DNA of 32,000 bases. Source: Trichodesmium erythraeum IMS101. GTDB taxonomy: Bacteria > Cyanobacteriota > Cyanobacteriia > Cyanobacteriales > Microcoleaceae. The position numbers were made by a program, and so were the translations under genes. Numbering within the stretch: the first letter of the stretch is position 1; each line of letters begins with the position of its first letter. The DNA is taken from NCBI RefSeq assembly GCF_000014265.1, contig NC_008312.1, positions 4,020,001-4,052,000 on the forward strand, read 5' to 3'. Positions 4,835 through 32,000 of this stretch are shown here, one piece after another. The notes beneath the pieces were generated by a model that worked only from the letters and a program-made list of their open reading frames with translations, was not told where the DNA came from and did not search any database.

Positions 4835-5545
4835 ATGACCACTACCGAGAAGAAACCTATTGTTATTTCCCCATCTATATTATCAGCAGATTTTAGTCGC
4901 CTTGGAGATGAAGTCCGAGCTGTAGATCAAGCTGGTGCTGACTGGATTCATATTGATGTAATGGATGGCCGTTTTGTACCTAATATTACTATTGGCCCAT
5001 TAATTGTCAAAGCACTTCGTCCTGTCACTAAGAAACCTCTTGATGTCCACTTAATGATTGTGGAACCAGAGAAGTATGTTGAAGATTTCGCAAAGGCAGG
5101 CGCTGATATTATATCTGTTCATGCTGAACATAATGCTTCACCTCATTTGCACCGAACTCTAGGCCAAATTAAGGAGTTGGGTAAGCAAGCAGGTGTAGTT
5201 CTTAATCCTTCTACACCTCTAGAATTAATTGAATATGTTTTAGATTTATGTGACTTAGTGTTGATAATGAGTGTCAACCCTGGCTTTGGAGGTCAAAGTT
5301 TTATTCCTACAGTTATATCTAAAATCCGGAAGCTACGTGAAATGTGTGATGCCAGGGGACTTAATCCTTGGATAGAAGTTGATGGTGGTCTCAAAACTGA
5401 TAATACTTGGCAAGTATTAGAAGCTGGTGCTAATGCTATTGTTGCAGGTTCTGCTGTGTTTAAGGCTAATGATTATGCAGAGGCAATTAATGGTATTCGT
5501 AATAGTAAACGTCCCGTTCCTCAACCTCAGTTAGCTACTGTTTAA
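4835..5545 (+). CDS. rpe: ribulose-phosphate 3-epimerase
   Basis: 236-aa ORF with the hallmark motifs [56 protein letters not shown] Shine-Dalgarno-like sequence about 10 nt upstream of the ATG. Confidence 0.95.
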
Positions 5546-6712: not shown

Positions 6713-8083
6713 TTACTCTTCCTGAGTCATACAACATTCAGGTTGTACACTCAAATTTATGTTTTCACCGCTACGATTCAATTGTATATCAATAGGCAAA
6801 AACAAATATGAAGATTGGACAATTTCCTGGACTTGACTCGGAGAAGTAACTGTCCTATTCTTAACTTCTTGAAGTACATCTCCTGGCCTAATATTAGCTT
6901 TTTCTGCTGGAGAATCATCAAAAACTTTAATAACTAAAACACCTTGCTCTTCAGTAATGACGTTGCTCCCAATTTCTGTATTTAATTTCTGTTTAACTTC
7001 TCGTGTCAGCTCGGCCATTTGAACACCTAGTTTTGGATAGCCACTAAATTCAGCTTCCACTGGTGACTCAAATATAGAGCCATCATCACTGAGAGAATAG
7101 TTACGAAACTCAAAAGTACCATCTGGTCTTTGTGCTACGCGAAAATTATCCGCTGAGTAGGCGGAGTCTATTTCTCCAGAATCTAAATTGGTCGGATCAC
7201 TACCTAATAAAACTAGGCCTTTAGCAGAAGACAAAAGCTCAATCTTTTGTAGGATGGTCTTAGTTTGGTTAATATCACTATCAAAAAACTGAGTGAACAT
7301 GACTCCTGAAGGTCCTGTCATTGATAACTGGCTTTCATGGACAACAAAGCCAACACTGTAGCTTAATTTCCATACTCCTTTAAAGGCTTCTTTTAGCCTG
7401 TCATCTGGTTCAATAAGAGGGCCAAAAATTCTGTTTTCTTTGGTGGATACCTTTGGATATTTTGTCCTTGGTCGAGTGGGAGGTGAAGTTTCTGTTGGAG
7501 TTGGTTCCGATATTGTATCGTTATTTGGATCATTGGGTGCCTCAGGAATCATGGCTAAAATTTTACTAGAGAAAAACCCTGCTATGGCTAGAGCAACTAA
7601 AGACTTCCAAGGAATAGCTCTAGGTTGACCACTTGCTCTCTCCACTAAACACCTTGCCATAATGTCATGGAGTGCCTGTTTTTCTGGGGTAAAAGCAGCC
7701 ATCAGATAACCAACAACTAATACAATTAATCCCAGAATAAACAGTATTCCAGCTAGTATCAAGTATGGTGAATCTGTAGACCCTGTCCCTTCACCCATTA
7801 TGGCCACTATTGTAGCAGCTATCCAAACTACAAGAAAAAATGACTTGCCGAAATATCTTGCTGTTGCTTTGCCAAAAGAAATTTTATTTCCCCGTAAGTC
7901 TGTTACAGAAATTCCAACTATCTGTTTACCTAAAGTTCCTTGTATTTGAGAACTTTCCAATATAGCAAAATATAACCAACCTAATACAGTATTTAAAACT
8001 AGAAAAATAGAGGATTTTACCGAAGTATTTTCATTTATTTCTTGCTTACCCAAAGTCAAGTAAATTAATAGTAAAAAAACCAC
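6713..8083 (-). CDS. RDD-domain membrane protein with C-terminal PDZ domain (true N-terminus probably lies upstream of the GTG at 8083)
   Basis: 456-aa ORF. RDD-type membrane module (GTLGKQIVGISVTDLRGNKISFGKATARYFGK ... ALHDIMARCLV), a Pro/Thr-rich linker and a C-terminal PDZ (GVLVIKVFDDSPAEKANIRPGDVLQEV). The in-frame upstream sequence KYAIFNQIFVDILIDG matches the start of the RDD module in the neighbouring kinase. Confidence 0.75.
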   Translation of the reverse strand: MVFLLLIYLTLGKQEINENTSVKSSIFLVLNTVLGWLYFAILESSQIQGTLGKQIVGISVTDLRGNKISFGKATARYFGKSFFLVVWIAATIVAIMGEGTGSTDSPYLILAGILFILGLIVLVVGYLMAAFTPEKQALHDIMARCLVERASGQPRAIPWKSLVALAIAGFFSSKILAMIPEAPNDPNNDTISEPTPTETSPPTRPRTKYPKVSTKENRIFGPLIEPDDRLKEAFKGVWKLSYSVGFVVHESQLSMTGPSGVMFTQFFDSDINQTKTILQKIELLSSAKGLVLLGSDPTNLDSGEIDSAYSADNFRVAQRPDGTFEFRNYSLSDDGSIFESPVEAEFSGYPKLGVQMAELTREVKQKLNTEIGSNVITEEQGVLVIKVFDDSPAEKANIRPGDVLQEVKNRTVTSPSQVQEIVQSSYLFLPIDIQLNRSGENINLSVQPECCMTQEE

Positions 8084-10590: not shown

Positions 10591-11580
10591 ATCACCTCTG
10601 ACAATTTTAGTCTTTATTATTAATAGTAAAAATACGATTTATGAAAATTTTAGTATTAAACTGATATGGAAAAAATTAACTACTGGATACCTCAAAAAAA
10701 ACTACAATATAAATTGCCAGTAGCTATAGTCAGATAATTTAGTAAAATGCCATCCACTATTAGTTAAAATTTAGTTTCTAGTCTTAATTTAAACTACATA
10801 TAATTTCTGGGTATCATGCTTTAATTAGTTGAGAAGAAGGTGATTTAGCAATAGTTGAATAAAATAGCACAAACAGTATATTTATTAATAGTTTACTTCA
10901 AGCAAAATATTTTATTAAAAATTTGAAAGATATAATTATTTAAAATTTGTAAATCACTTAGCATAAATAATAAACATATTAATTTTGAAAAAAAATATGA
11001 ATTCTGAAAAATTTAGGATTAAATTTATATGAAAAAAAATTAACTATTGGATACCTCAAAAAAACGGAATTTAGAAAAATATAAATTCTGAAAAATTTAG
11101 TATTAAACTGATATGAAAAAAATTAACTACTGGATACCTCAAAAAAACACAATATAAATTGCCAGTATCTATAGTCATAAAATTTAGTAAAATGCTATCT
11201 ACTATTGGTGAAAACTCAGCTTCTAGACTTGACTTAAACTACATAGAAATATTTGGGTATTATGCCTTAATTTATTGAGAATAAGGTAATTTAGTAATAG
11301 TTGAATAAAATAGCAAGAACGGTATATTTATTAATAGTTTACTGCTAGCAAAATCTTTAATTAAATATGTGAAAAATATAATCGTTGAAATATTTGGGTA
11401 TTATGCCTTAATTTATTGAGAATAAGGTAATTTAGTAATAGTTGAATAAAATAGCACGAACGGTATATTTATTAATAGTTTACTGCCAGCAAAATCTTTA
11501 ATTAAATATGTGAAAAATATAATCGTTTAAAACTTGCAAATCACCTAGAATAAATCAGCAAAATATTAATAGTAAAAAAA
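10591..11580 (+). pseudogene. about 3.5 decayed head-to-tail copies of the FHA-encoding 5' module of the downstream gene
   Basis: Direct alignment by eye to 11555-11920. Copy A is ~10591-10996 and partial copy B is 10997-11067. Copy C is ~11083-11386 and half copy D is 11387-11580. All are riddled with stops and richer in A/T than the intact copy. Example: TTAACTACTGGATACCTCAAAAAAA versus the intact TTAACTACTGGATACCTCAGACAAC. Confidence 0.75.
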
Positions 11581-16499: not shown

Positions 16500-17714
16500 A
16501 TGCTAGACCTAACAAAACTAGCACAACAAATGCAAGGGATGAGTCAACATCTGACAAAAGAGGCGATGGCTGCTAAAAATAGATTGGAGATTGCTCAACA
16601 ATTATTAGAAGCAGCAAAGGATGAACAAGAAGATTTATTAGCCTTAGAGGAAAGTTGGTGCGACCGTATACTTTTTAATCCTGCTATTCCTATAGAATCT
16701 TTAGATACTTATCCTCTAATTAATCCTCCTCCAAAAAGTCATACAGTATTCGCTACGGATGGTTCTCAAATAGCTCCAAGTCAACATGAAATTGCCTATT
16801 GTTATTTGTTAAATATTGGTCGAGTAATGTTGCATTATGGGGAAAGTCGTTATCCGCTTTTAGATAGTATTCCAGAAATTTTTTATGAACCAGGTGACCT
16901 TTATATCTCTCGACAATGGGGTATTAAAACAGAAGAATGGATGGGTTATCGACGGACTATTTCTGAGGCTTTGGTTTTGGCCCAATTGGGTTGTGAATGG
17001 GTAAAAAATAATTCTGATAATTTAGGTTCTCCAATATTAGCAATGGTTGATGGTTCTCTGATTTATTGGTTCTTGGAGTCTTTGCCTTCTGAAGCACGGG
17101 ATAGGATTTTAAATCCCATAATGGAAGCTTGGAATAAATTAAAGCTGGCTGGTATTCCTTTGGTTGGTTATTTGAGTGCTTCTCGCAGTAATGAAAGTTT
17201 ATCTTTTTTGCGTTTAAAGGCTTGTATTTATGATGAACCTGATTGTATCAGTAATTGTCCAAATGTTGGTTTGGGGGGATTTGGTTTTACTGAAAAAGCT
17301 CCTTGTCAGTCGTTTGAACCGCTGCGAGATGTGATATTTTGGGGTTCAATATTAAGGCCTGGACAAAGAAGTCCTTTGTGGCAATCTTCTGCTAGAATTC
17401 TGCATTTATATGGGGATAATACTATCTATTTTTGTTATGTGAATGTTGGTAGGGAAGTGGCTAGAATTGATATGCCAGAATGGGTGGTTGAAAATGAGGA
17501 AATGTTGGAGTTAGTGTTAGGAATGATTTTGGCTCAAGTGCAAAAGGGTTATGGTTATCCGGTGGCATTAGCAGAAGCTCATAATCAGGCGGTGGTTAGG
17601 GGTGGCGATCGCATCAGTTTTTTTGCTTTGTTGGAGCAGGAAATGATTAAGGCTGGTTTGAAAAATGTGGGGACTTCTTACAAGGAGACTCGCAAGCGGA
17701 GTAGTATTGCCTGA
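16500..17714 (+). CDS. NurA-like nuclease domain protein
   Basis: 404-aa ORF with N-terminal coiled coil. Acidic motifs FATDGSQI and AMVDGSLIYW are spaced as in the RNase-H-like NurA 5'-3' nuclease fold. This call is from memory of the motifs, not from a search. Confidence 0.5.
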   Translation: MLDLTKLAQQMQGMSQHLTKEAMAAKNRLEIAQQLLEAAKDEQEDLLALEESWCDRILFNPAIPIESLDTYPLINPPPKSHTVFATDGSQIAPSQHEIAYCYLLNIGRVMLHYGESRYPLLDSIPEIFYEPGDLYISRQWGIKTEEWMGYRRTISEALVLAQLGCEWVKNNSDNLGSPILAMVDGSLIYWFLESLPSEARDRILNPIMEAWNKLKLAGIPLVGYLSASRSNESLSFLRLKACIYDEPDCISNCPNVGLGGFGFTEKAPCQSFEPLRDVIFWGSILRPGQRSPLWQSSARILHLYGDNTIYFCYVNVGREVARIDMPEWVVENEEMLELVLGMILAQVQKGYGYPVALAEAHNQAVVRGGDRISFFALLEQEMIKAGLKNVGTSYKETRKRSSIA

Positions 17715-17814
17715 TTTTAGTCGTTATAGTCTCCATGAATTCACAATCATAAATCTGTGATTTTTTGACTGCGGTTTTTATAGCTGCTATTGCTTATGGG
17801 GTGATTTCTCTCAT

Positions 17815-19650
17815 GTCTAAACCTAAATGTTCATAAAGCGATCGCTTCTTAACTAGCAAAAAAAAGTTGTTTTATTTTTAACTAATTGAAGTATAATAAA
17901 AAGTAGACTCACTATTTTTTTTGAGCACACGAGCTTCTGACAACTCAATGAGGAAAGGCGATGGTTGTAGGTGAAACTCAGTAAAATTAGAGTCCCTTGC
18001 TGCAATTCGCACATCTGTTGTGCTCACACTTTAGGAGTCGTTTGCATCATACAAAGCTATTGAGCACTAAGTACTGAAATCTGCTTATAAGTAAGATTAG
18101 GAAAAATTAGACTTTGAAGCTACTAAATATTTATAAAGCGATCGCTTCTTAACTAGCAAAAAAAGTTGTTTTATTTTTAACTAATTGAAGTATAATAAAA
18201 AGTAGACTCACTATTTTTTTTGAGCACACGAGCTTCTGACAACCCAATGAGGAAAGGCGATGGTTGTAGGTGAAACTCAGTAAAATTAGAGTCCCTTGCT
18301 GCAATTCGCACATCTGTTGTGCTCACACTTTAGGACTCGTTTGCATCATACAAAGCTATTGAGCACTAAGTACTGAAATCTGCTTATAAGTAAGATTAGG
18401 AAAAATTAGACTTTGAAGCTACTAAATATTTATAAAGCGATCGCTTCTTAACTAGCAAAAAAAGTTGTTTTATTTTTAACTAATTGAAGTATAATAAAAA
18501 GTAGACTCACTATTTTTTTTGAGCACACCAGCTTCTGACAACCGAGAAGGAAAGGCGATGGTTGTAGGTGAAACTCAGTAAAATTAGAGTCCCTTGCTAC
18601 AATTCTTACATTTGTTGTGCTCACACTTTAGGACTTTGGTCGCATCATCTGAAGCTCCTACAAACTAAGTTAAGTACCGAAGATATAATAGTTATAGGTA
18701 AAAATCAGATCGGAAAAATTAGACTTTGAAGCTACTAAATATTTATAAAGCGATCGCTTCTTAACTAGCAAAAAAAGTTGTTTTATTTTTAACTAATTGA
18801 AGTATAATAAAAAGTAGACTCACTATTTTTTTTGAATACACCAGCTTCTGACAACCGAGAAGGAAAGGCGATGGTTGTAGGTGAAACTCAGAAAAATTAG
18901 AGTCCCTTGCTGCAATTCTTACATCTGTTGTGCTCCCACTTTAGGACTTTGGCCGCATCATCTGAAGCTCCTGCAAACTAAGTTAAATACCGAAGATATA
19001 ATAGTTATAGGTAAAAATCAGATCGGAAAAATTAGACTTTGAAGCTACTAAATATTTATAAAGCGATCGCTTCTTAACCAGCAAAAAAAGTTGTTTTATT
19101 TTTAACTAATTGAAGTATAATAAAAAGTAGACTCACTATTTTTTTTGAATACACCAGCTTCTGACAACCGAGAAGGAAAGGCGATGGTTGTAGGTGAAAC
19201 TCAGAAAAATTAGAGTCCCTTGCTGCAATTCTTACATCTGTTGTGCTCCCACTTTAGGACTTTGGCCGCATCATCTGAAGCTCCTACAAACTAAGTTAAA
19301 TACCGAAGATATAAGAGTTATAGGTAAAAATCAGAAAAGTTAGACATCCCCGCTGCAATTCGCATATTTGTTGTACTCCCACTTTAGGACTTGTTTGCAT
19401 CATACAAAGCTATTGAGCAATAAGTAATGAATATCTAATGCTTATAGGTAAAATTAGGAAAAATTAGACTTTGAAGCTACTAAATATTTATGAAGCGATC
19501 GCTTCTTGACAAGCAGAAAAAGTTGTTTTATTTTTAAGTTAATTGAGTATTATAGGAAAGTAGTAACTCTTTTTTTTGAGATCACCAACTCCTGACAATC
19601 ATGAAAAAAACATCTAATGGTTGTAGGCAAGATGAGGAAAAATTAGACTT
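17815..19650 (+). repeat. tandem array of ~300-bp units, each with one HIP1 palindrome and a promoter-like module
   Basis: HIP1 sites at 17838, 18138, 18437, 18750, 19063 and 19495 give periods of 300, 299, 313, 313 and 432 bp. Each unit starts AGCGATCGCTTCTTAACTAGC-A7-GTTGTTTTATTTTTAACTAATTGAAGTATAAT. There are two variants of the 3' half: alpha in units 1-2, beta in units 3-5, and unit 5 carries beta plus alpha. The sixth copy is diverged and forms the upstream region of the gene at 19935. Confidence 0.9.
19506..19553 (+). promoter_or_regulatory. sigma70-like promoter module upstream of protease paralogue 1
   Basis: TTGACA (19506-19511), 17-nt spacer, TATTTT (19529-19534), plus a second -10-like TATTAT at 19548-19553. 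Homologous to the modules at 23404 and in the array units. The long distance to the ATG (~400 nt) lowers confidence. Confidence 0.4.
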
Positions 19651-19934
19651 TCAAACTACTAACCCAGATAAGTGCGAATGCTGTCTATATTCCTAAAGGT
19701 TTTGCTCCAACAGTAGTTTCCCACACCATCTCAAGCTCGTGAGCTGATGTAAAATTATAAAAAAATACTAGCTCATCCCCAGTGATAACTACCGATATTC
19801 CCCAAAAGTTGTGCTTCAGCTTCAATTATAGGGTTTTGGTCACATTACTTAAAGATCCAAAAAACCAAGGATGGAAGATCTAATGGTTGTAGGAAAAAAA
19901 ATTGACATTAGCACTTGGTGAACTTTTAAGAAAG

Positions 19935-20987
19935 ATGAAATATTTAATTCGCGTCTTTGGCTTAACTTTCCTGTCACTAACTCTGACAAACTGTTCCTTA
20001 TGTCCAAAAAAAATAGTCTCTCTACTAGAGCCTAGTATTTTAAGACTATTTTATACAAATAAACCCCTCATATCTGGAGAAACAGAAGCTTATAATTTAC
20101 TAACCCCAGCTCATGTGGTCAAAAAGGAAGGGAAAAATTTATTAGAAAATAATGATGGGAAAGTTGCGAATGTGACTAAATTAGAAATATTTCCGAGTAA
20201 TATAAATTTAGCTTTAGCAACTTTTGAGCAAACGGGAAAAAAATGTAACTGTAATGATCCATTGCTAAGAATAGGTAATTCAAACAGTTTTAAAACCAGT
20301 AGTTCTGTCTACACTTTGGGCTTTGCTCTTTGGGGTAGGCAGTTGTTATCAGAATTTGCTTTTGGTAGTGTTTATACTGAGGAACGTCGGCGGCCAGGCG
20401 ATGGAGTTTATGATCAAGCTTTGAGTGTAAGTGGAAACACTGAAGTGCCTGTTATGGATCAGAGGGTTAAGTTTATGGCAGCTCATAGAAAAAGTGATCA
20501 AGAACAAGAAATGGTCGAAAGTTTGGCTTCAAGACCACCAAAGTTGTCTGAGTCAGAATGTCAGAATTTCTTGGAAGCTGTATTTTTGGAGGGTAATATT
20601 CAAGGTTTGACTTTTTCCTGGGGTATACCTATTACTTTGAATTTTTTTCGGGAGTATTCTTCAAAGGCGATCGCTGTTGAGATACAAGAACAAGAAGTCG
20701 AGTTACCAGAACCACTTGAGGAGCACCGATGGAAAGAGGAAGAGGAAGAACGGGGTGAAATAGAACCAGAAGGACAAAAACAACTTCATAAGGCCGAATA
20801 TAAGGCCAGACAAGAAGAGCTAGTTGAAATACAAAGCCTACAACTACAAAAAGAATTGATGTCTGAAAAACAAAAGAAAAGGGCAACAATAGGTATCGGG
20901 AGCTTTTGGGTAGATTTTTTGATTTTCGGAGTAGGCCTCAATGCTCTAGTACTTTATGGCGTGTTTTCTTATACTAAAAAAGGATGA
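19935..20987 (+). CDS. degenerate trypsin-like paralogue (predicted pseudo-protease), lipoprotein signal, C-terminal TM anchor, no GUN4 domain
   Basis: The ORF track starts at TTG 19902. The in-frame ATG at 19935 gives MKYLIRVFGLTFLSLTLTNCS, matching the signal peptides of the two paralogues. The His motif is kept (LTPAHVV), the Asp position reads NINLALATF, and the Ser motif GMSGAPVVD is replaced by VSGNTEVPVMD. Confidence 0.6.
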   Translation: MKYLIRVFGLTFLSLTLTNCSLCPKKIVSLLEPSILRLFYTNKPLISGETEAYNLLTPAHVVKKEGKNLLENNDGKVANVTKLEIFPSNINLALATFEQTGKKCNCNDPLLRIGNSNSFKTSSSVYTLGFALWGRQLLSEFAFGSVYTEERRRPGDGVYDQALSVSGNTEVPVMDQRVKFMAAHRKSDQEQEMVESLASRPPKLSESECQNFLEAVFLEGNIQGLTFSWGIPITLNFFREYSSKAIAVEIQEQEVELPEPLEEHRWKEEEEERGEIEPEGQKQLHKAEYKARQEELVEIQSLQLQKELMSEKQKKRATIGIGSFWVDFLIFGVGLNALVLYGVFSYTKKG

Positions 20988-21197
20988 TTTCTCAGACAAA
21001 TATTTACAACATATTTAGAAATAACGAGATACATGGCAAATGGTAAAAGTATTTATCTGAGTCATTTTGATGGTAATTGATGTAACTTATAATAACGGAA
21101 ATAACTCTAAGTCGTTTTCCCTGTCTATAGAAAAAAATTTAGCTGCCACTCAAGTAATTAAAATTATTAGTTTAAAGCCTTAATAAGGCTCTCAGAC

Positions 21198-21252
21198 TTG
21201 GACAACAAAAAACAGTTGTTTTGTTGTATTTAAAAAAAAAATTAAATAATAT
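21198..21252 (+). promoter_or_regulatory. diverged copy of the shared promoter module upstream of protease paralogue 2
   Basis: CTTGGACAACAAAAAACAGTTGTTTTGTTGTATTTAAA aligns with CTTGACAA-N-AAAAA(G/A)TTGTTTTAT(A/T)TTTAA of the other copies. It has an insertion that spoils the canonical spacing. Confidence 0.3.
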
Positions 21253-21421
21253 TGGAAACATATAGCTATTTTTTAGATATAGTTTTATTATAAAAATAAT
21301 TAAAATAAAATCTAGATAAAATCTATATTAAGTTAAAATTTTCCGGATTTAAATATTTAAACCTTTACTAATAAAATGTTATTTGGTATAACCTTTCTGT
21401 CAACTAATATTCTTTAAACCG

Positions 21422-23224
21422 ATGAAATCTCTACTGCCTATTATCAGTATAACTTTCTTATCAATAACTCTGACAAATTTTTCTTCCTCTGTCAAAAAAA
21501 CAGAGGTCGAAGACATAGCTTCTCGACTAGAGGATAGTATTGTTAAACTATCTTATAAAAATCAACCAGGAGATGGAACTGGTTTTTTTGTAGAGGTGGA
21601 AGGAAAGTCAGAAGTCTGTAGTGTACTAACAGCAGCTCATGTTGTGGAAAAAGAAGGACAAAAAATCTTATGGACTGAAAAAGATGAAAAAGTCTGGGAT
21701 GTTGCTACGGTAGAAAGATTTCCTGGTAGTATAGACTTGGCTTTGATTACTTTTAAGCCACACACAAAAAGATGTAATTATCCCGCACTAAAAATAGGTA
21801 AACCAGAAAACCTGAAGATAGGTAGTTCTATTTTTGTTTATGGTTTTCCTCGTCTGGATCAACATTTAGTGGCCCAGTTTGTTGGGGGTCAGGTTTCAGC
21901 TTTGAAGAAAAAAGCCCGGGGTTATGGGGTTGCTTATAAAGCTTTGACTGTTGAAGGAATGAGTGGAGCCCCTGTTGTGGATACAAAGGGTGAGGTTGTG
22001 GCAGTCCATGGAAGTAGTAACTCTAAAATGGTGCCAAGTTTGATATCTCAGCAGATAAGTAGGCCTGATATAGAATGGCAGCTTGATCGGCAAACTTTCA
22101 ATAGAATTAATAATAGTAGTTTGACCTGTGCTTGGGGTGTACCTATTAATTATTTTCGGGAGTCTAAGTTTTATAATGCTAAGTTATATAGTAATCTTCT
22201 ACCTTTAGACTTGAATAAGTGGATACTTTCGATATTTTCCATTAGTGGGTTGATGTTTAGCTCTGGTATTGTTTCTTTTCGGTTCAAGCGTTTTCAAGCT
22301 TCACCAGTTTCGGGACAAGAACAAAATGAGCAGGAAAGAGAGTTTGAGGATGTAGTATTTAGGGGAGAAGAAGAGCACAGACCGTTGAGTTCCCCGGCAA
22401 ATATTCCGACTCAGCTACAAAATGAGCAGGAAAGAGAGTTTGAGGATGTAGTATTTAGGGGAGAAGAAGAGCGCAGACCGTTGAGTTCCCCGGCAAATAT
22501 TCAGACTCAGCTACAAAATGAGCAGGAAAGAGAGTTTGAGGATGTAGTATTTAGGGGAGAAGAAGAGTACAGACCGTTGAGTTCCCTGGCAAATATTCCG
22601 ACTCAGCTACAAAATGAGCAGGAAAGAGAGTTTGAGGATGTAGTATTTAGGGGAGAAGAAGAGCACAGACCGTTGAGTTCCCTGGCAAATATTCAGACTC
22701 AGGAGCAGCAAAGGCAAGGAGGGGTTCAGGTTCTTGAACCTCCGTCTTCTGTGGTTTCTGTGCCTCTGGTTTCTGCAGCTGGAGTTGATTATACTAGGTT
22801 GCATGAGTTATTGGTGGCTAAAAGGTGGAAGGAAGCAGACGATGAAACATATCAAAGAATGATAGAAGTGGCGGACCGGAAGTCCCAAGGATGGTTGAGA
22901 ATTGAGGATACAAAGAATTTTCCTAGTCAAGATTTAGGGATTATTGATAAGCTATGGCTCAGATATAGTAATGGTATGTTTGGTTTTTCTGTTCAGAAGC
23001 AAGTTTATCAGAGTTTGGGTGGTACCCAGAGGTATAATCCAAAAGTAGTAGAGGATTTCGGAGATAAGGTGGGATGGCGCCTGGAGGGAAAATGGTTGAG
23101 TTATGATGGTTTGACTGTGAGTGATAATTATTACAGGGGACACCTGCCGTGTTGTGGGAATGAGGGGTCTTTGTATGGCTGGGCAGCAGTTCTTTGGTCT
23201 CTTCTCTCTCATAAAGATTTGTAA
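21422..23224 (+). CDS. membrane-anchored trypsin-like serine protease with charged 32-aa repeats and C-terminal GUN4 domain
   Basis: 600-aa ORF. Signal sequence. Catalytic triad motifs LTAAHVV, SIDLALITF, GMSGAPVVD. TM helix (ILSIFSISGLMFSSGIVSF). 4 x 32-aa repeat. GUN4 signature VDYTRLHELLVAKRWKEADDETYQRM ... GWLRIEDTKNFPSQDLGIIDKLWLRYSNGMFGFSVQKQVY. Confidence 0.85.
   Translation: MKSLLPIISITFLSITLTNFSSSVKKTEVEDIASRLEDSIVKLSYKNQPGDGTGFFVEVEGKSEVCSVLTAAHVVEKEGQKILWTEKDEKVWDVATVERFPGSIDLALITFKPHTKRCNYPALKIGKPENLKIGSSIFVYGFPRLDQHLVAQFVGGQVSALKKKARGYGVAYKALTVEGMSGAPVVDTKGEVVAVHGSSNSKMVPSLISQQISRPDIEWQLDRQTFNRINNSSLTCAWGVPINYFRESKFYNAKLYSNLLPLDLNKWILSIFSISGLMFSSGIVSFRFKRFQASPVSGQEQNEQEREFEDVVFRGEEEHRPLSSPANIPTQLQNEQEREFEDVVFRGEEERRPLSSPANIQTQLQNEQEREFEDVVFRGEEEYRPLSSLANIPTQLQNEQEREFEDVVFRGEEEHRPLSSLANIQTQEQQRQGGVQVLEPPSSVVSVPLVSAAGVDYTRLHELLVAKRWKEADDETYQRMIEVADRKSQGWLRIEDTKNFPSQDLGIIDKLWLRYSNGMFGFSVQKQVYQSLGGTQRYNPKVVEDFGDKVGWRLEGKWLSYDGLTVSDNYYRGHLPCCGNEGSLYGWAAVLWSLLSHKDL
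22322..22705 (+). repeat. intragenic 96-bp tandem repeat x4 (QNEQEREFEDVVFRGEEEHRPLSSPANIPTQL)
   Basis: Unit starts at 22322, 22418, 22514 and 22610. Copies differ at only a few nucleotides (H/R/Y, P/L, P/Q codons). Confidence 0.9.
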
Positions 23225-23403
23225 ACTGTAAGATATAGCCGGAACTCAGGGTTTAGAGGTTGCTTAAGGTAAGAGGTGAGAAGTAAGGGGTTGATATTGA
23301 TGAGGGATGGCTTCACTTCGGTTATTAGCTAATGTTGTTCCAGTGTTTAAATGGCGAAAATGTTTAGATTTTTTAATTACTAAATAATAGAGCGATCGCT
23401 ACC

Positions 23404-23451
23404 TTGACAAATAGAAAAAATTGTTTTATATTTAAGTTAGATAAGTAAAAT
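23404..23451 (+). promoter_or_regulatory. sigma70-like promoter module upstream of protease paralogue 3
   Basis: TTGACA (23404-23409), 17-nt spacer, TATATT (23427-23432). A second -10-like TAAAAT lies at 23446-23451. Preceded by the extended HIP1 AGCGATCGCT at 23391-23400, the same layout as in the array units. Confidence 0.5.
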
Positions 23452-23561
23452 AGGAAAATATTAGGTCTTTTTTTTTAGGTGGCCATATAATTAGATAGTA
23501 TAAAATTGTCGGTAAAGTTAAAAAAAATCCTACTAACTCAAGTTCCCAACCTCCGAAGCTG

Positions 23562-25433
23562 ATGAAGTCTCTTTTTTCTATCCTTGGTCTAACTTTCCTC
23601 TCTGTCATTCTGACAAACTGTTCCTTATCTCCAGAAAAAATAGCTTCTCGACTAAAACCTAGTATTGTCAAACTATCTTATAAAAATAAACCCGGACATG
23701 GAACTGGTTTTTTTGTGCCTGGAGAACTAGGGGTCTGTACTGTACTGACTGCAGCTCATGTTGTGGACGAGGAGGGAAAGGTAAGGTTACGCACTGAAAA
23801 AGATGGAAAATTCTGGGATGCGGCTACAGTAAAAATATTTCCTCGTACTATAGATATGGCTTTGGTGACTTTTAAGCCAGAGACGGAAAAATGTAATTAT
23901 CGGGCACTGAAAATAGGTAACTCAGATAGTCTCAGGATAGGTAGTTCTATTTTTATTTATGGTTTTCCTCGTCGGGGTGGGGCTCTAGTTCCCCAGTTTG
24001 TTGATGGTAAGGTCTCAGCTTTGGATAGGTTGGCTCGGGGTTATGGGGTTTCTTATAGTACTTTGACTGTGGGTGGAATGAGTGGAGCTCCTGTTGTGGA
24101 TGGGAGGGGTAGGGTTGTGGCTGTACATGGAATGAGCGATGTTGAAATAGTTCAAAGTTTGGCTTCACAACAAGCAGGTTTGTCTGAGGATGAACGGCTT
24201 TTGAGTCAGCAGGCTCAGGAAAGTTTGAGGGCTGCTGGTGTTCAACGTTTGACTTTTTCTTGGGGTATACCTATTACTTTTTTTCGGGAGTCTAAGTTTT
24301 ATTATTCTCAGGTTTCTGGGTTGAGTTTGTGGATGTTGTTTTATGGTGGGGCGGTGTTTGGTGGTGGTGTTGTTTATTTTGGGTTGAGGTATTTTCAAGC
24401 TCCACGGGTTTCAGGAGAAAGACAAGGGGACTGGGAAAGGCAACTTAAGAATGAAAAACGGAGGCGAGAGGAGGTTGAGGGCAGGTTGAGTTCTCTGGAA
24501 AGTTCTCGGGCTCAGGCACGGCAGGAGTTGGAAAGGCAAATAGAATGGGAAAGGGGGAAAAGACGGGAGTTTGAGGCACTGCTTAAGAATGAAAAACGGG
24601 GGCGAGAGGAGGTTGAGGGCAGGTTGAGTTCTCTGGAAAGTTCTGGGGCTCAGGCACAGCAGGAGTTGGAAAGGCAACTAGAATGGGAAAGGGGGAAAAG
24701 ACGGGAGTTTGAGGCACTGCTTAAGAATGAAAAACGGGGACGAGAGGAGGTTGAGGGCAGGTTGAGTTCTCTGGAAAGTTCTGGGGCTCAGGCACGGCAG
24801 GAGTTGGAAAGGCAACTAGAATGGGAAAGAGGGAAAAGACAGGAGCTTGAGGCACTGCTGCAAAGTCAAGGGGAGGTTCAGCCTCGGGTTGTTGAGCCTT
24901 TGTCTTCTGGTGATGTGCCTCTGGTTTCTGCAGTTGGGGTTAGTTATTCTAGGTTGCGTGATCTATTGGTGGCTAAAAAGTGGAGGGAAGCAGACCAAGA
25001 AACATACAAAAGAATGTTAGAAGTTGCGGGCAGGGAGTCCGAAGGATGGTTTAGAGGCTCGGATATAGAAAATTTTCCCTGCCAAGATTTAGCCACGATT
25101 GACAAACTATGGGTAAAGTATAGTAGTGGTAAGTTTGGTTTTTCTGTTCAGAAGCAAATTTATCAGAGTTTGGGTGGTACGAATGAATGGGACGAAAAAG
25201 TCTGGACAGCCTTCAGTGATCAAGTTGGATGGCGAAAAAGGGGTCGTTGGTTGAATTATGATGAGATTTTCGACGAGACATCGCATTGTGTGGGCCTCCT
25301 GCCAGGCATCACACATTGTGACCTCGGCCTGACCGGTGGGCCTGGTCCTTTTGACCTTATTGACTCTTTAAGGATATTAAAAATGGTGGCCATTATTTTT
25401 GCTATTACTATTTTCTCGCGCAGAGACTTGTAG
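23562..25433 (+). CDS. membrane-anchored trypsin-like serine protease (lipoprotein signal) with 46-aa coiled-coil repeats and C-terminal GUN4 domain
   Basis: 623-aa ORF. Signal MKSLFSILGLTFLSVILTNCS. Triad motifs LTAAHVV, TIDMALVTF, GMSGAPVVD. TM helix (LWMLFYGGAVFGGGVVYFGL). 3 x 46-aa repeat. GUN4 signature VSYSRLRDLLVAKKWREADQETYKRM ... FPCQDLATIDKLWVKYSSGKFGFSVQKQIY. Confidence 0.85.
   Translation: MKSLFSILGLTFLSVILTNCSLSPEKIASRLKPSIVKLSYKNKPGHGTGFFVPGELGVCTVLTAAHVVDEEGKVRLRTEKDGKFWDAATVKIFPRTIDMALVTFKPETEKCNYRALKIGNSDSLRIGSSIFIYGFPRRGGALVPQFVDGKVSALDRLARGYGVSYSTLTVGGMSGAPVVDGRGRVVAVHGMSDVEIVQSLASQQAGLSEDERLLSQQAQESLRAAGVQRLTFSWGIPITFFRESKFYYSQVSGLSLWMLFYGGAVFGGGVVYFGLRYFQAPRVSGERQGDWERQLKNEKRRREEVEGRLSSLESSRAQARQELERQIEWERGKRREFEALLKNEKRGREEVEGRLSSLESSGAQAQQELERQLEWERGKRREFEALLKNEKRGREEVEGRLSSLESSGAQARQELERQLEWERGKRQELEALLQSQGEVQPRVVEPLSSGDVPLVSAVGVSYSRLRDLLVAKKWREADQETYKRMLEVAGRESEGWFRGSDIENFPCQDLATIDKLWVKYSSGKFGFSVQKQIYQSLGGTNEWDEKVWTAFSDQVGWRKRGRWLNYDEIFDETSHCVGLLPGITHCDLGLTGGPGPFDLIDSLRILKMVAIIFAITIFSRRDL
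24444..24857 (+). repeat. intragenic 138-bp tandem repeat x3 (LKNEKRGREEVEGRLSSLESSGAQAQQELERQLEWERGKRREFEAL)
   Basis: Unit starts at 24444, 24582 and 24720. Near-identical at the DNA level. Confidence 0.9.
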
Positions 25434-25603
25434 AGTATAACATAAAACAGTTTCAGCCGTCAAGGTAAAAAGTATTATCTCTGTTTTTTTAACGAGTTTT
25501 CTTGATTTGAGGATTTTGATACCTCACTGATCGCGGGATACCCGTGGGGATGGAATGAGTAGGGAAAAGGGTTTCAGGGGGAAAAGGGAAGGGAGAGAAT
25601 AAA

Positions 25604-25750
25604 CCAAAAACCAAAAACCAAAAACCAAAAACCAAAAACCAAAAACCAAAAACCAAAAACCAAAAACCAAAAACCAAAAACCAAAAACCAAAAACCAAAA
25701 ACCAAAAACCAAAAACCAAAAACCAAAAACCAAAAACCAAAAACCAAAAA
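25604..25750. repeat. heptanucleotide microsatellite (CCAAAAA)x21, STRR-like
   Basis: Read directly. Period 7, first unit 25604-25610, last unit 25744-25750, ending 6 nt from the stop codon of the transposase gene. Confidence 0.95.
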
Positions 25751-25756
25751 CTAATT

Positions 25757-26521
25757 TTACTGATCATCAAAAAATTGCATAGCCACCTCCGGGTCATAAC
25801 AATTAGCCAAAACCAACTGTCTGGCCACCTCCACCACCAAATTTGAGGGAAGTTCCCAGTCAGCCCAAGGGAGTCGCATTTGTCCTGGAGAAGCCTTATT
25901 TTTTTTCTTTTTTTTCACCTTAGGCAAAAACCTACTACCCCACCGACGGCGCCTTTGAGACTTAGGTCGAGATTTATATTTCCGGCAAAAGCCCCTATAA
26001 TTTTGAGCACATTCATCAAGAGTTTTTCCCAGAGACAAAAAAGCTGGATGCCACTGTGTCAAACCATCATCAGTGAGACGGTCATAAGTGCCATAGTTAG
26101 AAAAGTCATAGAAAAAGCCAGACTGGATATTAGCAGCTTTTGGGTTAGCATGAATATAGCGAAGAGTATTCAAAGCTCGTTTTTTATCAGTATTGTCAAA
26201 CCCGGTGCTGTGGTATCTTTTCTCCCAAAAATGCCCCGTACGGTTAAGCATCTGGTTAAAACACATAGCGGTATACCAGTTGAGCCAGTGCATAATTTTA
26301 GGTAGTTCTTGTGGTTGGGAGGGCTCTAGTAAATAATGAACATGATTACTCATAATACAAAGAGCATAAAGTTTAAAGGAAAATTTATCTAAAGCCTTTT
26401 TCAAAGCAAACAAAAATATTTGGCGACATTGGAGACGAGTCAAATGAAACTCTCGGTTATTGCAGCGAGAAGTAACATGATAGGAATATTGGGGGAAAAG
26501 TTGGCGCGGTTGTCTAGGCAT
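25757..26521 (-). CDS. IS200/RAYT-type Y1 (HUH) tyrosine transposase-like protein with basic C-terminal extension
   Basis: 254-aa ORF. YHVTSRCNNREF, HUH motif MSNHVHYLLEP, GHFWEKRYHS, catalytic-Tyr region LRYIHANP. Lys/Arg-rich tail (RRRRW ... KVKKKKKNK). No partner tnpB and no recognisable IS ends. Confidence 0.8.
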   Translation of the reverse strand: MPRQPRQLFPQYSYHVTSRCNNREFHLTRLQCRQIFLFALKKALDKFSFKLYALCIMSNHVHYLLEPSQPQELPKIMHWLNWYTAMCFNQMLNRTGHFWEKRYHSTGFDNTDKKRALNTLRYIHANPKAANIQSGFFYDFSNYGTYDRLTDDGLTQWHPAFLSLGKTLDECAQNYRGFCRKYKSRPKSQRRRRWGSRFLPKVKKKKKNKASPGQMRLPWADWELPSNLVVEVARQLVLANCYDPEVAMQFFDDQ

Positions 26522-26589: not shown

Positions 26590-29500
26590 TATTTCAGTTA
26601 TTTCTGATTTTTTGACGGAAAATTCTCAGATAAAAAATTAGATAAAAAATTAGGCAAAAAATTAGATAAAAAATCAAAAGTACTCAGACAGATATTTCGG
26701 TTCAAATATTTTTTTGTGTTTGAGCGATCGCTAATTTTAGCTATTAGCTAAGAGCTGGAAAAATTGAGGAAAAAATTTATCTCAAATATATTAATAAGTC
26801 ATTTCTCAGGCATCAGCTTTTTGACGGAAAATTCTCAGACAAAAAATTAGATAAAAAATTAGACAAAAAAATAAAAAGTACTCAGCCAGATATTACAGAA
26901 AATTCTCAGATGAAAAATTAGGCAAAAAATTAGATAAAAAATTAGACAAAAAAATAAAAAGTACTCAGACAGATATTTCGGTTCAAATATTTTTTTGTGT
27001 TTGAGCGATCGCTAATTTTAGCCATCAGCTAAGAGCTGGAAAAATTGAGGAAAAAATTTATCTCAAATAATAAAGTCATTTCTCAGCCGTCAGCTTTTTG
27101 ACGGAAAATTATCAGATGAAAAATTAGGCAAAAAATTAGATAAAAAATTAGACAAAAAAATCAAAAGTACTCAGCCAGATATTACGGAAAATTCTCAGAT
27201 GAAAAATTAGATAAAAAATTAGGCAAAAAACCAGAAGTACTCAGACAGATATTTCGGTTCAAATATTTTTTTGTGTTTGAGCGATCGCTAATTTTAGCCA
27301 TCAGCTAAGAGCTGGAAAAATTGAGGAAAAAATTTATCTCAAATATATTAATAAGTCATTTCTCAGGCATCAGCTTTTTGACCGAAAATTCTCAGATGAA
27401 AAATTAGGCAAAAAATTAGAAGTACTCAGCCAGATATTACGGAAAATTCTCAGATAAAAAATTAGGCAAAAAATTAGACAAAAAAATCAAAAGTACTCAG
27501 CCAGATATTTCCGTTCAAATATTTTTTCGTGTTTGAGCGATCGCTAATTTTAGCCATCAGCTAAGAGCTGGAAAAATTGAGGAAAAAATTTATCTCAAAT
27601 AATAAAGTCATTTCTCAGCCGTCAGCTTTTTGACCGAAAATTCTCAGATGAAAAATTAGGCAAAAAACCAGAAGTACTCAGACAGATATTACGGAAAATT
27701 CTCAGATGAAAAATTAGATAAAAAATTAGGCAAAAAACCAGAAATACTCAGACAGATATTTCCGTTCAAATATTTTTTTGTGTTTGAGCGATCGCTAATT
27801 TTAGCCATCAGCTAAGAGCTGGAAAAATTGAGGAAAAAATTTATCTCAAATAATAAAGTCGTTTCTCAAGCATCAGCTTTTTGACGGAAAATTCTCAGAT
27901 GAAAAATTAGGCAAAAAATTAGATAAAAAATTAGGCAAAAAACCAGAAGTACTCAGCCAGATATTACGGAAAATTCTCAGATGAAAAATTAGATAAAAAA
28001 TTAGGCAAAAAATCAGAAATACTCAGACAGATATTTCCGTTCAAATGTTTTTTTCGTGTTTGAGCGATCGCTAAATTTAGCCATTAGCTAAGAGCTGGAA
28101 AAATTGAGGAAAAAATTTATCTCAAATATATTAATAAGTCATTTCTCAGCCGCCAGCTTTTTGACGGAAAATTATCAGATAAAAAATTAGGCAAAAAATT
28201 AGATAAAAAATTAGACAAAAAAATCAAAAGTACTCAGCCAGATATTACGGAAAATTCTCAGATGAAAAATTAGATAAAAAATTAGGCAAAAAACCAGAAG
28301 TACTCAGACAGATATTTCGGTTCAAATATTTTTTCGTGTTTGAGCGATCGCTAATTTTAGCCATCAGCTAAGAGCTGGAAAAATTGAGGAAAAAATTTAT
28401 CTCAAATAATAAAGTTGTTTCTCAAGCATCAGCTTTTTGACCGAAAATTCTCAGATGAAAAATTAGATGAAAAATTAGATGAAAAATTAGATGAAAAATT
28501 AGACAAAAAAATAAAAAGTACTCAGCCAGATATTACGGAAAATTCTCAGATGAAAAATTAGATAAAAATTAGGCAAAAAATCAGAAATACTCAGACAGAT
28601 ATTTCCGTTCAAATATTTTTTCGTGTTTGAGCGATCGCTAATTTTAGCCATTAGCTAAGAGCTGGAAAAATTGAGGAAAAAATTTATCTCAAATAATAAA
28701 GCCATTTCTCAGGCATCAGCTTTTTGACCGAAAATTATCAGATGAAAAATTAGGCAAAAAATTAGATAAAAAATTAGGCAAAAAACCAGAAGTACTCAGC
28801 CAGATATTACGGAAAATTCTCAGATGAAAAATTAGATAAAAAATTAGATAAAAATTAGAAGTACTCAGACAGATATTTCGGTTCAAATATTTTTTTGTGT
28901 TTGAGCGATCGCTAATTTTAGCCATTAGCTAAGAGCTGGAAAAATTGAGGAAAAAATTTATCTCAAATAATAAAGCCATTTCTCAGGCATCAGCTTTTTG
29001 ACCGAAAATTATCAGATGAAAAATTAGGCAAAAAATTAGATAAAAAATTAGGCAAAAAACCAGAAGTACTCAGCCAGATATTACGGAAAATTCTCAGATG
29101 AAAAATTAGATAAAAAATTAGATAAAAATTAGAAGTACTCAGACAGATATTTCGGTTCAAATATTTTTTTGTGTTTGAGCGATCGCTAATTTTAGCCATC
29201 AGCTAAGAGCTGGAAAAATTGAGGAAAAAATTTATCTCAAATAATAAAGTTGTTTCTCAAGCATCAGCTTTTTGACCGAAAATTCTCAGATGAAAAATTA
29301 GATGAAAAATTAGATGAAAAATTAGATGAAAAATTAGACAAAAAAATAAAAAGTACTCAGCCAGATATTACGGAAAATTCTCAGATGAAAAATTAGATAA
29401 AAATTAGGCAAAAAATCAGAAATACTCAGACAGATATTTCCGTTCAAATATTTTTTCGTGTTTGAGCGATCGCTAATTTTAGCTATTAGCTAAGAGCTGG

Positions 29501-32000
29501 AAAAATTGAGGAAAAAATTTATCTCAAATATATTAATAAGTCATTTCTCAGGCATCAGCTTTTTGACGGAAAATTCTCAGACAAAAAATTAGATAAAAAA
29601 TTAGACAAAAAAATAAAAAGTACTCAGCCAGATATTACAGAAAATTCTCAGATGAAAAATTAGGCAAAAAATTAGATAAAAAATTAGACAAAAAAATAAA
29701 AAGTACTCAGACAGATATTTCGGTTCAAATATTTTTTTGTGTTTGAGCGATCGCTAATTTTAGCCATCAGCTAAGAGCTGGAAAAATTGAGGAAAAAATT
29801 TATCTCAAATAATAAAGTCATTTCTCAGCCGTCAGCTTTTTGACGGAAAATTATCAGATGAAAAATTAGGCAAAAAATTAGATAAAAAATTAGACAAAAA
29901 AATCAAAAGTACTCAGCCAGATATTACGGAAAATTCTCAGATGAAAAATTAGATAAAAAATTAGGCAAAAAACCAGAAGTACTCAGACAGATATTTCGGT
30001 TCAAATATTTTTTTGTGTTTGAGCGATCGCTAAATTTAGCCATCAGCCAGGAGCTGGAAAAATTGAGGAAAAAATTTATCTCAAATAATAAAGTCGTTTC
30101 TCAGCCGTCAGCTTTTTGACCGAAAATTATCAGATGAAAAATTAGGCAAAAAATTAGATAAAAAATTAGACAAAAAATTAGAAGTACTCAGCCAGATATT
30201 ACGGAAAATTCTCAGATGAAAAATTAGATAAAAAATTAGGCAAAAAATCAGAAATACTCAGACAGATATTTCGGTTCAAATATTTTTTTGTGTTTGAGCG
30301 ATCGCTAATTTTAGCCATCAGCTAAGAGCTGGAAAAATTGAGGAAAAAATTTATCTCAAATAATAAAGTTGTTTCTCAAGCATCAGCTTTTTGACCGAAA
30401 ATTCTCAGATGAAAAATTAGATGAAAAATTAGATGAAAAATTAGATGAAAAATTAGACAAAAAAATAAAAAGTACTCAGCCAGATATTACGGAAAATTCT
30501 CAGATGAAAAATTAGATAAAAATTAGGCAAAAAATCAGAAATACTCAGACAGATATTTCCGTTCAAATATTTTTTCGTGTTTGAGCGATCGCTAATTTTA
30601 GCCATTAGCTAAGAGCTGGAAAAATTGAGGAAAAAATTTATCTCAAATAATAAAGCCATTTCTCAGGCATCAGCTTTTTGACCGAAAATTATCAGATGAA
30701 AAATTAGGCAAAAAATTAGATAAAAAATTAGGCAAAAAACCAGAAGTACTCAGCCAGATATTACGGAAAATTCTCAGATGAAAAATTAGATAAAAAATTA
30801 GATAAAAATTAGAAGTACTCAGACAGATATTTCGGTTCAAATATTTTTTTGTGTTTGAGCGATCGCTAATTTTAGCCATCAGCTAAGAGCTGGAAAAATT
30901 GAGGAAAAAATTTATCTCAAATAATAAAGTTGTTTCTCAAGCATCAGCTTTTTGACCGAAAATTCTCAGATGAAAAATTAGATGAAAAATTAGATGAAAA
31001 ATTAGATGAAAAATTAGACAAAAAAATAAAAAGTACTCAGCCAGATATTACGGAAAATTCTCAGATGAAAAATTAGATAAAAATTAGGCAAAAAATCAGA
31101 AATACTCAGACAGATATTTCCGTTCAAATATTTTTTCGTGTTTGAGCGATCGCTAATTTTAGCCATTAGCTAAGAGCTGGAAAAATTGAGGAAAAAATTT
31201 ATCTCAAATAATAAAGCCATTTCTCAGGCATCAGCTTTTTGACCGAAAATTATCAGATGAAAAATTAGGCAAAAAATTAGATAAAAAATTAGGCAAAAAA
31301 CCAGAAGTACTCAGCCAGATATTACGGAAAATTCTCAGATGAAAAATTAGATAAAAAATTAGATAAAAATTAGAAGTACTCAGACAGATATTTCGGTTCA
31401 AATATTTTTTTGTGTTTGAGCGATCGCTAATTTTAGCCATCAGCCAGGAGCTGGAAAAATTAAGGAAAAAATTTATCTCAAATAATAAAGCCATTTCTCA
31501 GGCATCAGCTTTTTGACCGAAAATTATCAGATGAAAAATTAGGCAAAAAATTAGAAGTACTCAGCCAGATATTACGGAAAATTCTCAGATGAAAAATTAG
31601 ATAAAAAATTAGATAAAAATTAGAAGTACTCAGACAGATATTTCCGTTCAAATATTTTTTTGTGTTTGAGCGATCGCTAAATTTAGCCATTAGCTAAGAG
31701 CTGGAAAAATTGAGGAAAAAATTTATCTCAAATATATTAATAAGTCATTTCTCAGCCGCCAGCTTTTTGACCGAAAATTCTCAGATGAAAAATTAGGCAA
31801 AAAATTAGATAAAAAATTAGGCAAAAAACCAGAAGTACTCAGCCAGATATTACGGAAAATTCTCAGATGAAAAATTAGATAAAAATTAGAAGTACTCAGA
31901 CAGATATTTCGGTTCAAATATTTTTTTGTGTTTGAGCGATCGCTAATTTTAGCCATCAGCTAAGAGCTGGAAAAATTGAGGAAAAAATTTATCTCAAATA
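26590..32000. repeat. open-ended nested tandem array: about 20 units of 250-287 bp, each with one HIP1 palindrome, two ~100-nt sub-repeats and 11-12 nt A-tract micro-repeats
   Basis: HIP1 GCGATCGC at 26724, 27005, 27281, 27537, 27788, 28064, 28344, 28631, 28905, 29179, 29466, 29747, 30023, 30298, 30585, 30859, 31146, 31420, 31670 and 31936. The unit consensus is readable directly. The array runs to the window edge. Confidence 0.95.

Follow-up and report, generated by a model that had tools for sequence, protein, structure and literature searches.

The repeat array considered here lies upstream of the protease-family gene Tery_2616 (the first of three paralogues) of Trichodesmium erythraeum IMS101, within a stretch of 32,000 nt (hereafter the window, to which all positions refer) whose encoded proteins are identical to proteins of this strain. 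Among described systems, two tandem arrays are the closest. One is the NsiR1 array upstream of hetF in Nostoc/Anabaena PCC 7120, which is likewise arranged head-to-tail upstream of a protease-family gene of a filamentous diazotroph, carries promoter-like sequence in each repeat, and consists of near-identical central and diverged peripheral copies (PMC9045159). NsiR1, however, is an RNA of about 60 nt with a DIF1-motif promoter in each copy, NsiR1.1 being antisense to hetF's 5' untranslated region, whereas the units upstream of Tery_2616 measure 300-432 bp and repeat, in the sense orientation, the promoter and leader of that gene itself. Each testable feature that defines NsiR1 is absent from the Tery_2616 array, which is without the TCCGGA sequence, a terminator, an Rfam match or a conserved fold.

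The other is the array at 103-110 kb of the T. erythraeum IMS101 chromosome, which exceeds 6 kb, includes seven repeats and is the source of the most abundant non-coding RNA (ncRNA) of this organism (Pfreundt et al. 2014, PMC4143802). It belongs to the same genome and is also composed of tandem units including a duplicated piece of the neighbouring gene, with one transcription start site (TSS) per repeat (PMC4143802). The units of the 103-110 kb array are, however, 736-973 bp in length, with experimentally mapped TSSs and an RNA of about 260 nt on northern blots, whereas any RNA from the Tery_2616 array would be a predicted one. The two are located at different places on the chromosome (about 4.06 Mb for the Tery_2616 array, as estimated from locus-tag spacing), and the former is built from the 3' part of a gene, the latter from a promoter-leader region.

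Promoter regions are known to be duplicated in tandem, promoters to be stacked one behind another, and homologous promoter modules to occur before non-homologous genes ("promoter propagation"). As in stacked tandem promoters, a promoter module, designated P, is duplicated at this locus head-to-tail, co-directionally with the gene and without intervening terminators, and as in promoter propagation, this one module of about 85 nt stands before genes of two families whose N-terminal domains are not related. The presence of up to six copies, recurring at a NurA-adjacent locus across genera, is unusual for stacked promoters, and in Trichodesmium the whole leader of about 400 nt is copied along with the promoter. 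Overall, the array comes closest to promoter-region duplication of the ordinary tandem kind, and to the known repeat-derived ncRNA locus of IMS101. The array is very probably a tandem amplification of the complete promoter-to-start-codon cassette of Tery_2616, built on the conserved module P. The whole explanation, in which this amplification is combined with weakened distal promoters and with no demonstrated function of the copies themselves, is given a probability of roughly 0.55.

Structure and origin of the repeat units

The array was located by Tandem Repeats Finder at 17823-19345 (period 313, 5.0 copies, 93% matches, score 2185), and the same families were recovered with a repeat finder. 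Upon splitting at the HIP1-containing start GCGATCGCTTCTT[AG]AC, units of 300, 299, 313, 313, 432, and 440 bp were obtained, starting at 17838, 18138, 18437, 18750, 19063, and 19495, respectively. The five full units described in the initial annotation were thus reproduced with the same periods. The sixth, diverged copy noted there is present as well, but instead of ending at 19650 it represents the native upstream region, consisting of the native P module and the leader of about 400 nt of Tery_2616 (U6, 19495-19934, + strand), and runs to the start codon at 19935-19937.

All units are oriented on the + strand and strictly head-to-tail, with identity between adjacent units of 0.94-0.99. U1 (17838-18137, 300 bp) and U2 (18138-18436, 299 bp, 99% identity to U1) are of the alpha type; U3 (18437-18749, 313 bp) and U4 (18750-19062, 313 bp, 97% identity to U3) are of the beta type with a differing 3' half; and U5 (19063-19494, 432 bp) is a composite of beta and alpha. 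The general order of elements is P (about 85 nt), X (ATGGTTGTAGG..AAAATTAGA), Y in its alpha or beta form, X', and a tail, as seen in U1 with P, X, Y-alpha, X', and tail. In each distal unit X is located at roughly 124-154 of the unit, and X', which is degenerate, near the 3' end. The X element of the native leader (ATGGTTGTAGG...AAAAATTAGA, 19617-19647, + strand) belongs to a repeat family, and X recurs about 50 nt ahead of the start codon, where a second copy begins at 19883. Both the native leader and U5 contain two Y segments, and the alpha and beta units resemble U5 minus one X-Y sub-repeat.

By global alignment, U5 and the native region 19495-19937 are collinear from HIP1 to the start-codon region, with 81% identity over the aligned columns. 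Because of this end-to-end collinearity, the unit is a copy of the entire promoter-to-start-codon region rather than a promoter with about 200 nt of something else behind it. The similarity of the first 95 nt of the array unit to the upstream regions of the protease genes was verified, with gapped identities of 0.89 to the copy upstream of paralogue 1 and 0.74 to that of paralogue 3, and with partial similarity to the region before paralogue 2. The view of the array as an amplified upstream region of a protease gene therefore stands, and is extended by the conservation of P before orthologous genes in other genera.

The left junction of the array (17823-17837, + strand; start as placed by Tandem Repeats Finder) consists of the original flank 5' of the P module, CTAAATGTTCATAAA, which is homologous to the terminal 15 nt of each unit, CTAAATATTTATAAA. 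The 9-mer AAATATTTA in every unit tail corresponds to codons 2-4 of Tery_2616, and AAATGTTCA is found in the left flank (aligned by eye; alternative alignments exist). These features suggest that a short homology (AAAT.TT.A), shared by the flank 5' of P and the beginning of the coding sequence, may have been the site of an illegitimate recombination that gave the first duplication, and that later copies may have been added by unequal crossing-over. Compared with U5, the shorter alpha and beta units lack one or the other internal X-Y sub-repeat, and each type has undergone further amplification. Since 26% of the window is tandem repeat and a duplication of 141 bp is also included in it (see below), the local tendency to duplication is high, and the array would be one product of this tendency.

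Repeated insertion of a mobile element, either a miniature inverted-repeat transposable element (MITE) or a "mobile promoter," could also account for the sharp boundaries of P and its presence before two families with unrelated N-terminal domains. Apart from the HIP1 palindrome and the complementarity between an A-run and a T-run, however, terminal inverted repeats are absent, and the copies are head-to-tail and collinear with the native leader. The same low standing applies to the units as small-peptide genes. Each unit includes short open reading frames (ORFs), such as a Cys-rich frame of 30-53 aa and MVVGETQ*, and the initial description of about 200 nt free of ORFs must be corrected insofar as ORFs of 20-58 aa exist on both strands of the array; they are, however, not conserved between unit types. 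ORF length and sequence differ among the alpha and beta units and the units of Trichodesmium MAG_R01, a metagenome-assembled genome (MAG), and the ORFs are absent from homologous leaders elsewhere. MVVGETQ* was considered as a conserved upstream ORF, and was rejected upon its absence from the homologous X elements of other genera and its alteration in MAG_R01. A 49-aa ORF of the array, looked up as a route to transcript-derived contigs, is not on record. Both the mobile element and the small peptides are regarded as scarcely credible explanations of the array.

Promoter module P and element X

Module P includes HIP1, TTGACA, a conserved spacer of 17 nt, TATTTT, a second -10-like box, and a run of 7-9 T residues. 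In the native copy, the order is HIP1-TTGACA-N17-TATTTT-TATTAT-T8, in which the predicted sigma-70-like promoter TTGACA-N17-TATTTT is located at 19506-19534 (+ strand; 10/12 consensus matches in the promoter scan) and the second -10-like box TATTAT at 19548-19553 (+ strand). Among 42 P copies, which come from several genera, this gene-proximal promoter is conserved in 35. The only other P copy in the window is located before paralogue 3 (23392-23480, + strand), with TTGACA at 23404-23409, N17, TATATT at 23427-23432, and then T9; a degenerate remnant is present upstream of paralogue 2 (21190-21235, + strand). The intact promoters previously proposed for the gene-proximal copies were accordingly found at 19506-19534 and 23404-23432.

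Within the distal units the -35 hexamer is degraded in every copy, TTGACA being replaced by TTAACT, or by TTAACC in U5. A perfect TATAAT, also as first described, is located at 17892-17897 in U1, 18191-18196 in U2, 18490-18495 in U3, 18803-18808 in U4, and 19116-19121 in U5. The arrangement TTAACY-N17-TATTTT of U1-U5 gives 8/12 matches, in addition to the perfect TATAAT without a -35 box, and no + strand promoter was detected in U1-U5 at the threshold of the standard sigma-70 consensus scan, which only the proximal copy passes. In T. erythraeum, the distal copies, with the -35 box lost and the perfect TATAAT kept or gained, would be weakened promoters.

Through the substitutions specific to the array, the -35 region TTGACAA and, 28 nt downstream of it, TTAAGTT both read TTAACTA, giving a pair at 17848-17854 and 17877-17883 with the same offsets in U2-U4, which may be due to chance or may form a new pair of sites; the first heptamer is TTAACCA in U5 and in MAG_R01. 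Several candidate functions of P were examined and rejected. As a terminator-plus-promoter insulator, P would rely on its complementary A-run and T-run, yet the AU hairpins formed by these runs do not exceed shuffled sequences in stability. By eye, the NtcA-type site (GTA-N8-TAC) is matched as GT-N10-AC in the array copies only, and is located 9 nt instead of about 22 nt from the -10 box; the two TTAACTA repeats, 28 nt apart, are not in the 11-nt phase of a Pho box; and the LexA-like or Fur-like resemblance in AGATAAGTATTAT is weak.

A pattern scan for P was performed on one genome per species, followed by a scan of metagenomes. The genome scan gave matches in a Trichodesmium MAG, Microcoleaceae MO_207.B10, Okeania SIO1I7, Dapis BLCC M172, and another cyanobacterial MAG, together with one chance match, and the metagenome scan gave 15 further P loci, 13 of which are genuine. 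In 13 loci, 159-260 nt separate P from the ATG of the protease or NACHT-GUN4 gene that follows. The genes preceded by P are of two types, a lipoprotein trypsin-like protease (MKSLP...LTNCS), with or without GUN4, and a NACHT-GUN4 protein. Alignment of the 42 distinct P copies revealed the near-invariant elements GCGATCGCTCC, TTGACA, AGAAAAAGTTGTTyTATTTTyAA, and AGATAAGTATTATGGGAAAATAGTGGCTC, up to the run of 7-9 T residues; the conservation ends sharply, with none on either flank. The X element (GAAGTTGTAGrTAAAA...AAAAATCAGA) adjoins the start codon in both the protease and the NACHT-GUN4 families, and in other genera the homologue of the native-leader X, GAAGTTGTAGGTAAAA..AAAAATCAGA, precedes the ATG. 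Owing to insertions, the spacing between X and P ranges from 60 to 370 nt. The regulatory module P-X, common to the GUN4-bearing trypsin-like protease and NACHT genes of Trichodesmium, Okeania, and Dapis, is the more useful by-product of this analysis. A promoter/operator that is shared and strongly conserved suggests that candidate immunity or cell-death genes of bloom-forming cyanobacteria are regulated together as a set.

Tandem P recurs in related taxa, with two to six copies per locus in at least six separate contexts. In Okeania SIO1I7 (locus L016, 580-1530), six P units of 152-183 bp are located at the syntenic position between NurA and the NACHT-GUN4 gene; all six copies score 10/12 as + strand promoters, and no + strand terminator was found among these stacked copies. 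"Trichodesmium sp." MO_231.B1 (L026, 6760-7340) carries three P copies after NurA and before a truncated GUN4-only gene, a mat metagenome contig (L036, 4005-4260) at least two after NurA, and four further loci two copies each with spacings of 229-308 bp. The architecture of IMS101 recurs in MAG_R01, where one unit of the alpha type and one of the U5 type are present with the proximal copy, and the MAG_R01 units share substitutions among themselves that are absent from the IMS101 units, indicating concerted evolution. In Okeania hirsuta and Dapis BLCC M126 (L021 and L024), unrelated genes occupy the position after NurA. The NurA-adjacent GUN4 locus is a rearrangement hot spot. A MITE-like element, CTGTAGGGGTTTGGTCTCCAAACCC..., was observed in or beside P modules at L014 (about 3950-3990, - strand), L031 (about 7630-7700), L032 (about 5170-5240, - strand), and L038 (about 1360-1430), and a second inserted element, GTAGGGGCGGGTT...ACCCGCCCC, in L016, L026, and L042.

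The recurrence of stacked P in at least six contexts, with the 10/12 promoter retained in all six Okeania copies, raises the alternative that the array is an adaptive cis-regulatory stack or decoy, in which the copy number of P (and X) tunes the expression of the GUN4-linked protease or NACHT genes. The additional copies could act as added co-directional promoters, could titrate a regulator that binds to the spacer or operator, or could give rise to leader RNAs competing for a factor that recognizes X. Between the -35 and -10 boxes and just 3' of them, the conservation across genera is much greater than a promoter requires and has sharp boundaries, the units of both Trichodesmium and Okeania hold P together with the AAAAATYAGA part of X, and the genes served look fast-evolving and of defence or cell-death type. 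The 9-mer AAAATTAGA of X is also in agreement with this alternative, with 83 occurrences in the window versus 2.35 expected, located almost only on the + strand of the promoter-leader array and of a giant array downstream. Against it, purifying selection on the distal copies is not detectable, all the Trichodesmium distal copies are devoid of the -35 box, MITE-like insertions interrupt distal copies elsewhere, the gene directly served in IMS101 is a catalytically degenerate paralogue without GUN4, and no factor binding to P or X is known. The comparison of copy number between strains is obscured by N gaps or possible collapse in the assemblies. We consider such a regulatory stack unlikely, though the foremost alternative; if it were selected, expression level would be set in an unusual manner, by the number of repeats. 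Its most elaborate form, a copy-number-tunable device in which the distal units, as DNA operators or as X-bearing sense leader RNAs, would titrate a dedicated regulator of the GUN4-linked protease and NACHT genes, with the giant array (about 70 copies of the motif, all on the + strand) as part of the sink, is quite improbable.

Variation in copy number between strains had been considered as a candidate feature, with the spacer from NurA to paralogue 1 apparently varying from 720 to 2188 bp, and was rejected. The odd unit lengths of 189, 321, and 577 in other assemblies correspond to N runs in scaffolds, and the remaining assemblies are possibly collapsed. Owing to these N gaps and to repeat collapse in short-read assemblies, the T. 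erythraeum differences in copy number are not trustworthy.

Predicted transcripts and sequence constraint

In the initial annotation each unit was proposed to fire its own RNA of about 200-250 nt, the alpha and beta variants giving two species; these would act in trans in the manner of NsiR1. A perfect TATAAT in every distal unit speaks for this proposal, as do the very high share of intergenic TSSs in T. erythraeum and its other array with the most abundant ncRNA of about 260 nt (PMC4143802), and a location upstream of a gene of the protease family, reminiscent of NsiR1 and hetF (PMC9045159). The differential RNA sequencing of IMS101 left out RNAs shorter than 300 nt (PMC4143802). No terminator-like site was found, however, on the + strand between 17800 and 19950, and in the absence of a terminator between the units and the gene, transcripts would read on toward Tery_2616. 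The folding z-scores against shuffled sequences (alpha unit +0.5, beta unit +1.1, opposite strand -0.4, native leader -0.15) give no thermodynamic support for a fold. The proposed comparison of structure and covariance across strains was likewise negative: RNAalifold on eight unit variants from three assemblies gave a covariation term of -0.73 kcal/mol, with the main stem broken in two of the eight. A stem GAGCACA/TGTGCTC, predicted for each unit, was rejected, being broken without compensation in the U4/U5-type units. A small hairpin around X has one compensatory pair (AU in three and GC in three) among eight protease leaders, with a total covariation term of -0.12 kcal/mol, and is absent from the NACHT leaders.

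No Rfam family reached the gathering score in the window, and only chance-level matches were obtained at E<=10 in 17700-20000. The TCCGGA (DIF1) motif is absent from the array, and is present in the window only at 5325 and 21342; the latter (21342-21347) is located about 75 nt upstream of the start codon of Tery_2617, the count in the window being at chance level (two versus 2.77 expected). Pairing with the 5' regions of the protease genes, for which a target prediction was suggested initially, is not expected, because the units are copies of the leader in the same sense and cannot act as antisense regulators. The repeated units of other genera have only P and part of X in common, without an RNA body, and the divergence of the units is neutral-like, as described below. 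A locus of discrete small RNAs of the NsiR1 type is, altogether, highly improbable; the two 3'-half variants themselves do exist.

Divergence was estimated between IMS101 and MAG_R01. The value was 0.020 at four-fold degenerate sites of four housekeeping genes, 0.06 for pS (the proportion of synonymous differences) of paralogues 1 and 2, 0.012-0.11 for other intergenic regions, and 0.040-0.083 for the array units; P within the array gave 0.064 and proximal P 0.032, the substitutions in P being too few for this comparison to be meaningful. Between orthologous two-copy loci, distal P is no better conserved than the rest of its own unit. The array thus appears to diverge at about the local synonymous rate, and on these small counts neutral evolution of the distal copies is not rejected.

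With respect to the distal copies, there is about an even chance that they are weakened co-directional promoters of which the transcripts, if any, would be unterminated sense leader RNAs, and that they have no independent function and evolve near-neutrally. Transcripts started in a unit would then run through the downstream units toward the catalytically degenerate Tery_2616, and would not be discrete structured RNAs. A number of points weigh against this reading and the explanation of which it is a part. A perfect -10 box alone is often sufficient in cyanobacteria, and the perfect TATAAT at the second -10 position of the array copies, in place of TATTAT in the proximal copy, could be a selected compensation for the lost -35 box. 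The presence of multi-copy P in at least six separate contexts and the retention of the same array layout in two Trichodesmium lineages may exceed mutational noise. The divergence comparisons rest on few substitutions in a region where local divergence varies about tenfold, leaving room for weak selection. Finally, with the most abundant ncRNA of the genome yielded by another repeat array, the transcription of repeats has a precedent in T. erythraeum (PMC4143802).

Non-coding DNA makes up about 40% of the Trichodesmium genome, and the reason for its retention is an open question (PMC4143802). Read as promoter-leader amplification, the locus offers a clear worked example of one source of non-coding DNA, namely, the repeated duplication of a promoter-leader cassette with constraint undetectable afterwards.

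Protease genes and other repeats in the window

The array is preceded by Tery_2614 (HAD hydrolase) and Tery_2615 (NurA, 16500-17714), and followed by the three paralogues, Tery_2616 (19935-20987, + strand, 350 aa), Tery_2617 (21422-23224, Trypsin_2 and GUN4), and Tery_2618 (23562-25433, Trypsin_2 and GUN4). No mention of Tery_2615 to Tery_2618 was found in the literature search. In Tery_2616 the signal peptide is of the lipoprotein type, the trypsin-like match is weak, and the GUN4 domain is lacking. Of its catalytic triad, His is kept, but Asp (D to N) and Ser (GMSGAP to GNTEVP) are lost. The ratio of nonsynonymous to synonymous differences (pN/pS) against the MAG_R01 orthologue is 0.60, that of the neighbouring housekeeping genes being 0.15-0.34. 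These features mark Tery_2616 as a pseudo-protease or, alternatively, as a paralogue in decay.

For the GUN4 domains of both the protease and the NACHT proteins, the PADLOC match is to PD-T4-6, an anti-phage model, with E of about 1e-39 (21422-25433 of the window; 1618-3987 of L016), the protease domains match the PADLOC models RT-Protease_XI and LmuA, and pN/pS is 0.8-1.3 in the N-terminal halves. The PADLOC matches together with the high pN/pS suggest that the GUN4-linked protease and NACHT genes are of defence or cell-death type. In Tery_2617 and Tery_2618, the linkers that join the protease domain to the GUN4 domain are formed by in-frame tandem repeats, at 22321-22702 (96 nt, four copies) and 24444-24859 (138 nt, three copies), respectively. 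The orthologues from other assemblies vary in length, with 600, 568, and 536 aa for Tery_2617, partly by one repeat unit, and the cause may be either real variation or collapse of the assemblies.

A perfect heptamer repeat, (AAACCAA) in 21.6 copies at 25601-25751, adjoins Tery_2620 (25757-26521, - strand, 254 aa; IS200-like Y1 transposase family, DUF1568). Tery_2620 belongs to a 205-member cluster at 90% identity, has repeats on both sides, and may be of the REP (repetitive extragenic palindromic)-associated tyrosine transposase type. The giant tandem array extends from 26600 to 32000, running off the end of the window, with at least 20 units of 250-291 bp that contain a HIP1 site (GAGCGATCGCTAA), the box TTTTTGAC[CG]GAAAATT, and runs of the 12-mer AGAYAAAAAATT. 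It is located on the far side of the three-gene protease cluster, and its start is also found at the end of a MAG_R01 contig (L011, 16259-16305). Homology between this array and the promoter-leader array was considered and rejected, the 9-mer AAAATTAGA alone being in common. Tandem duplications are also present upstream of the FHA-domain gene (11581), at 10991-11148 (84 bp, 1.9 copies) and at 11246-11531 (141 bp, 2.0 copies, 97% identity). The latter ends about 50 nt before this gene, and in MAG_R01 a gap of about 154 columns is located there, the intergenic region being shorter by about 150 bp.

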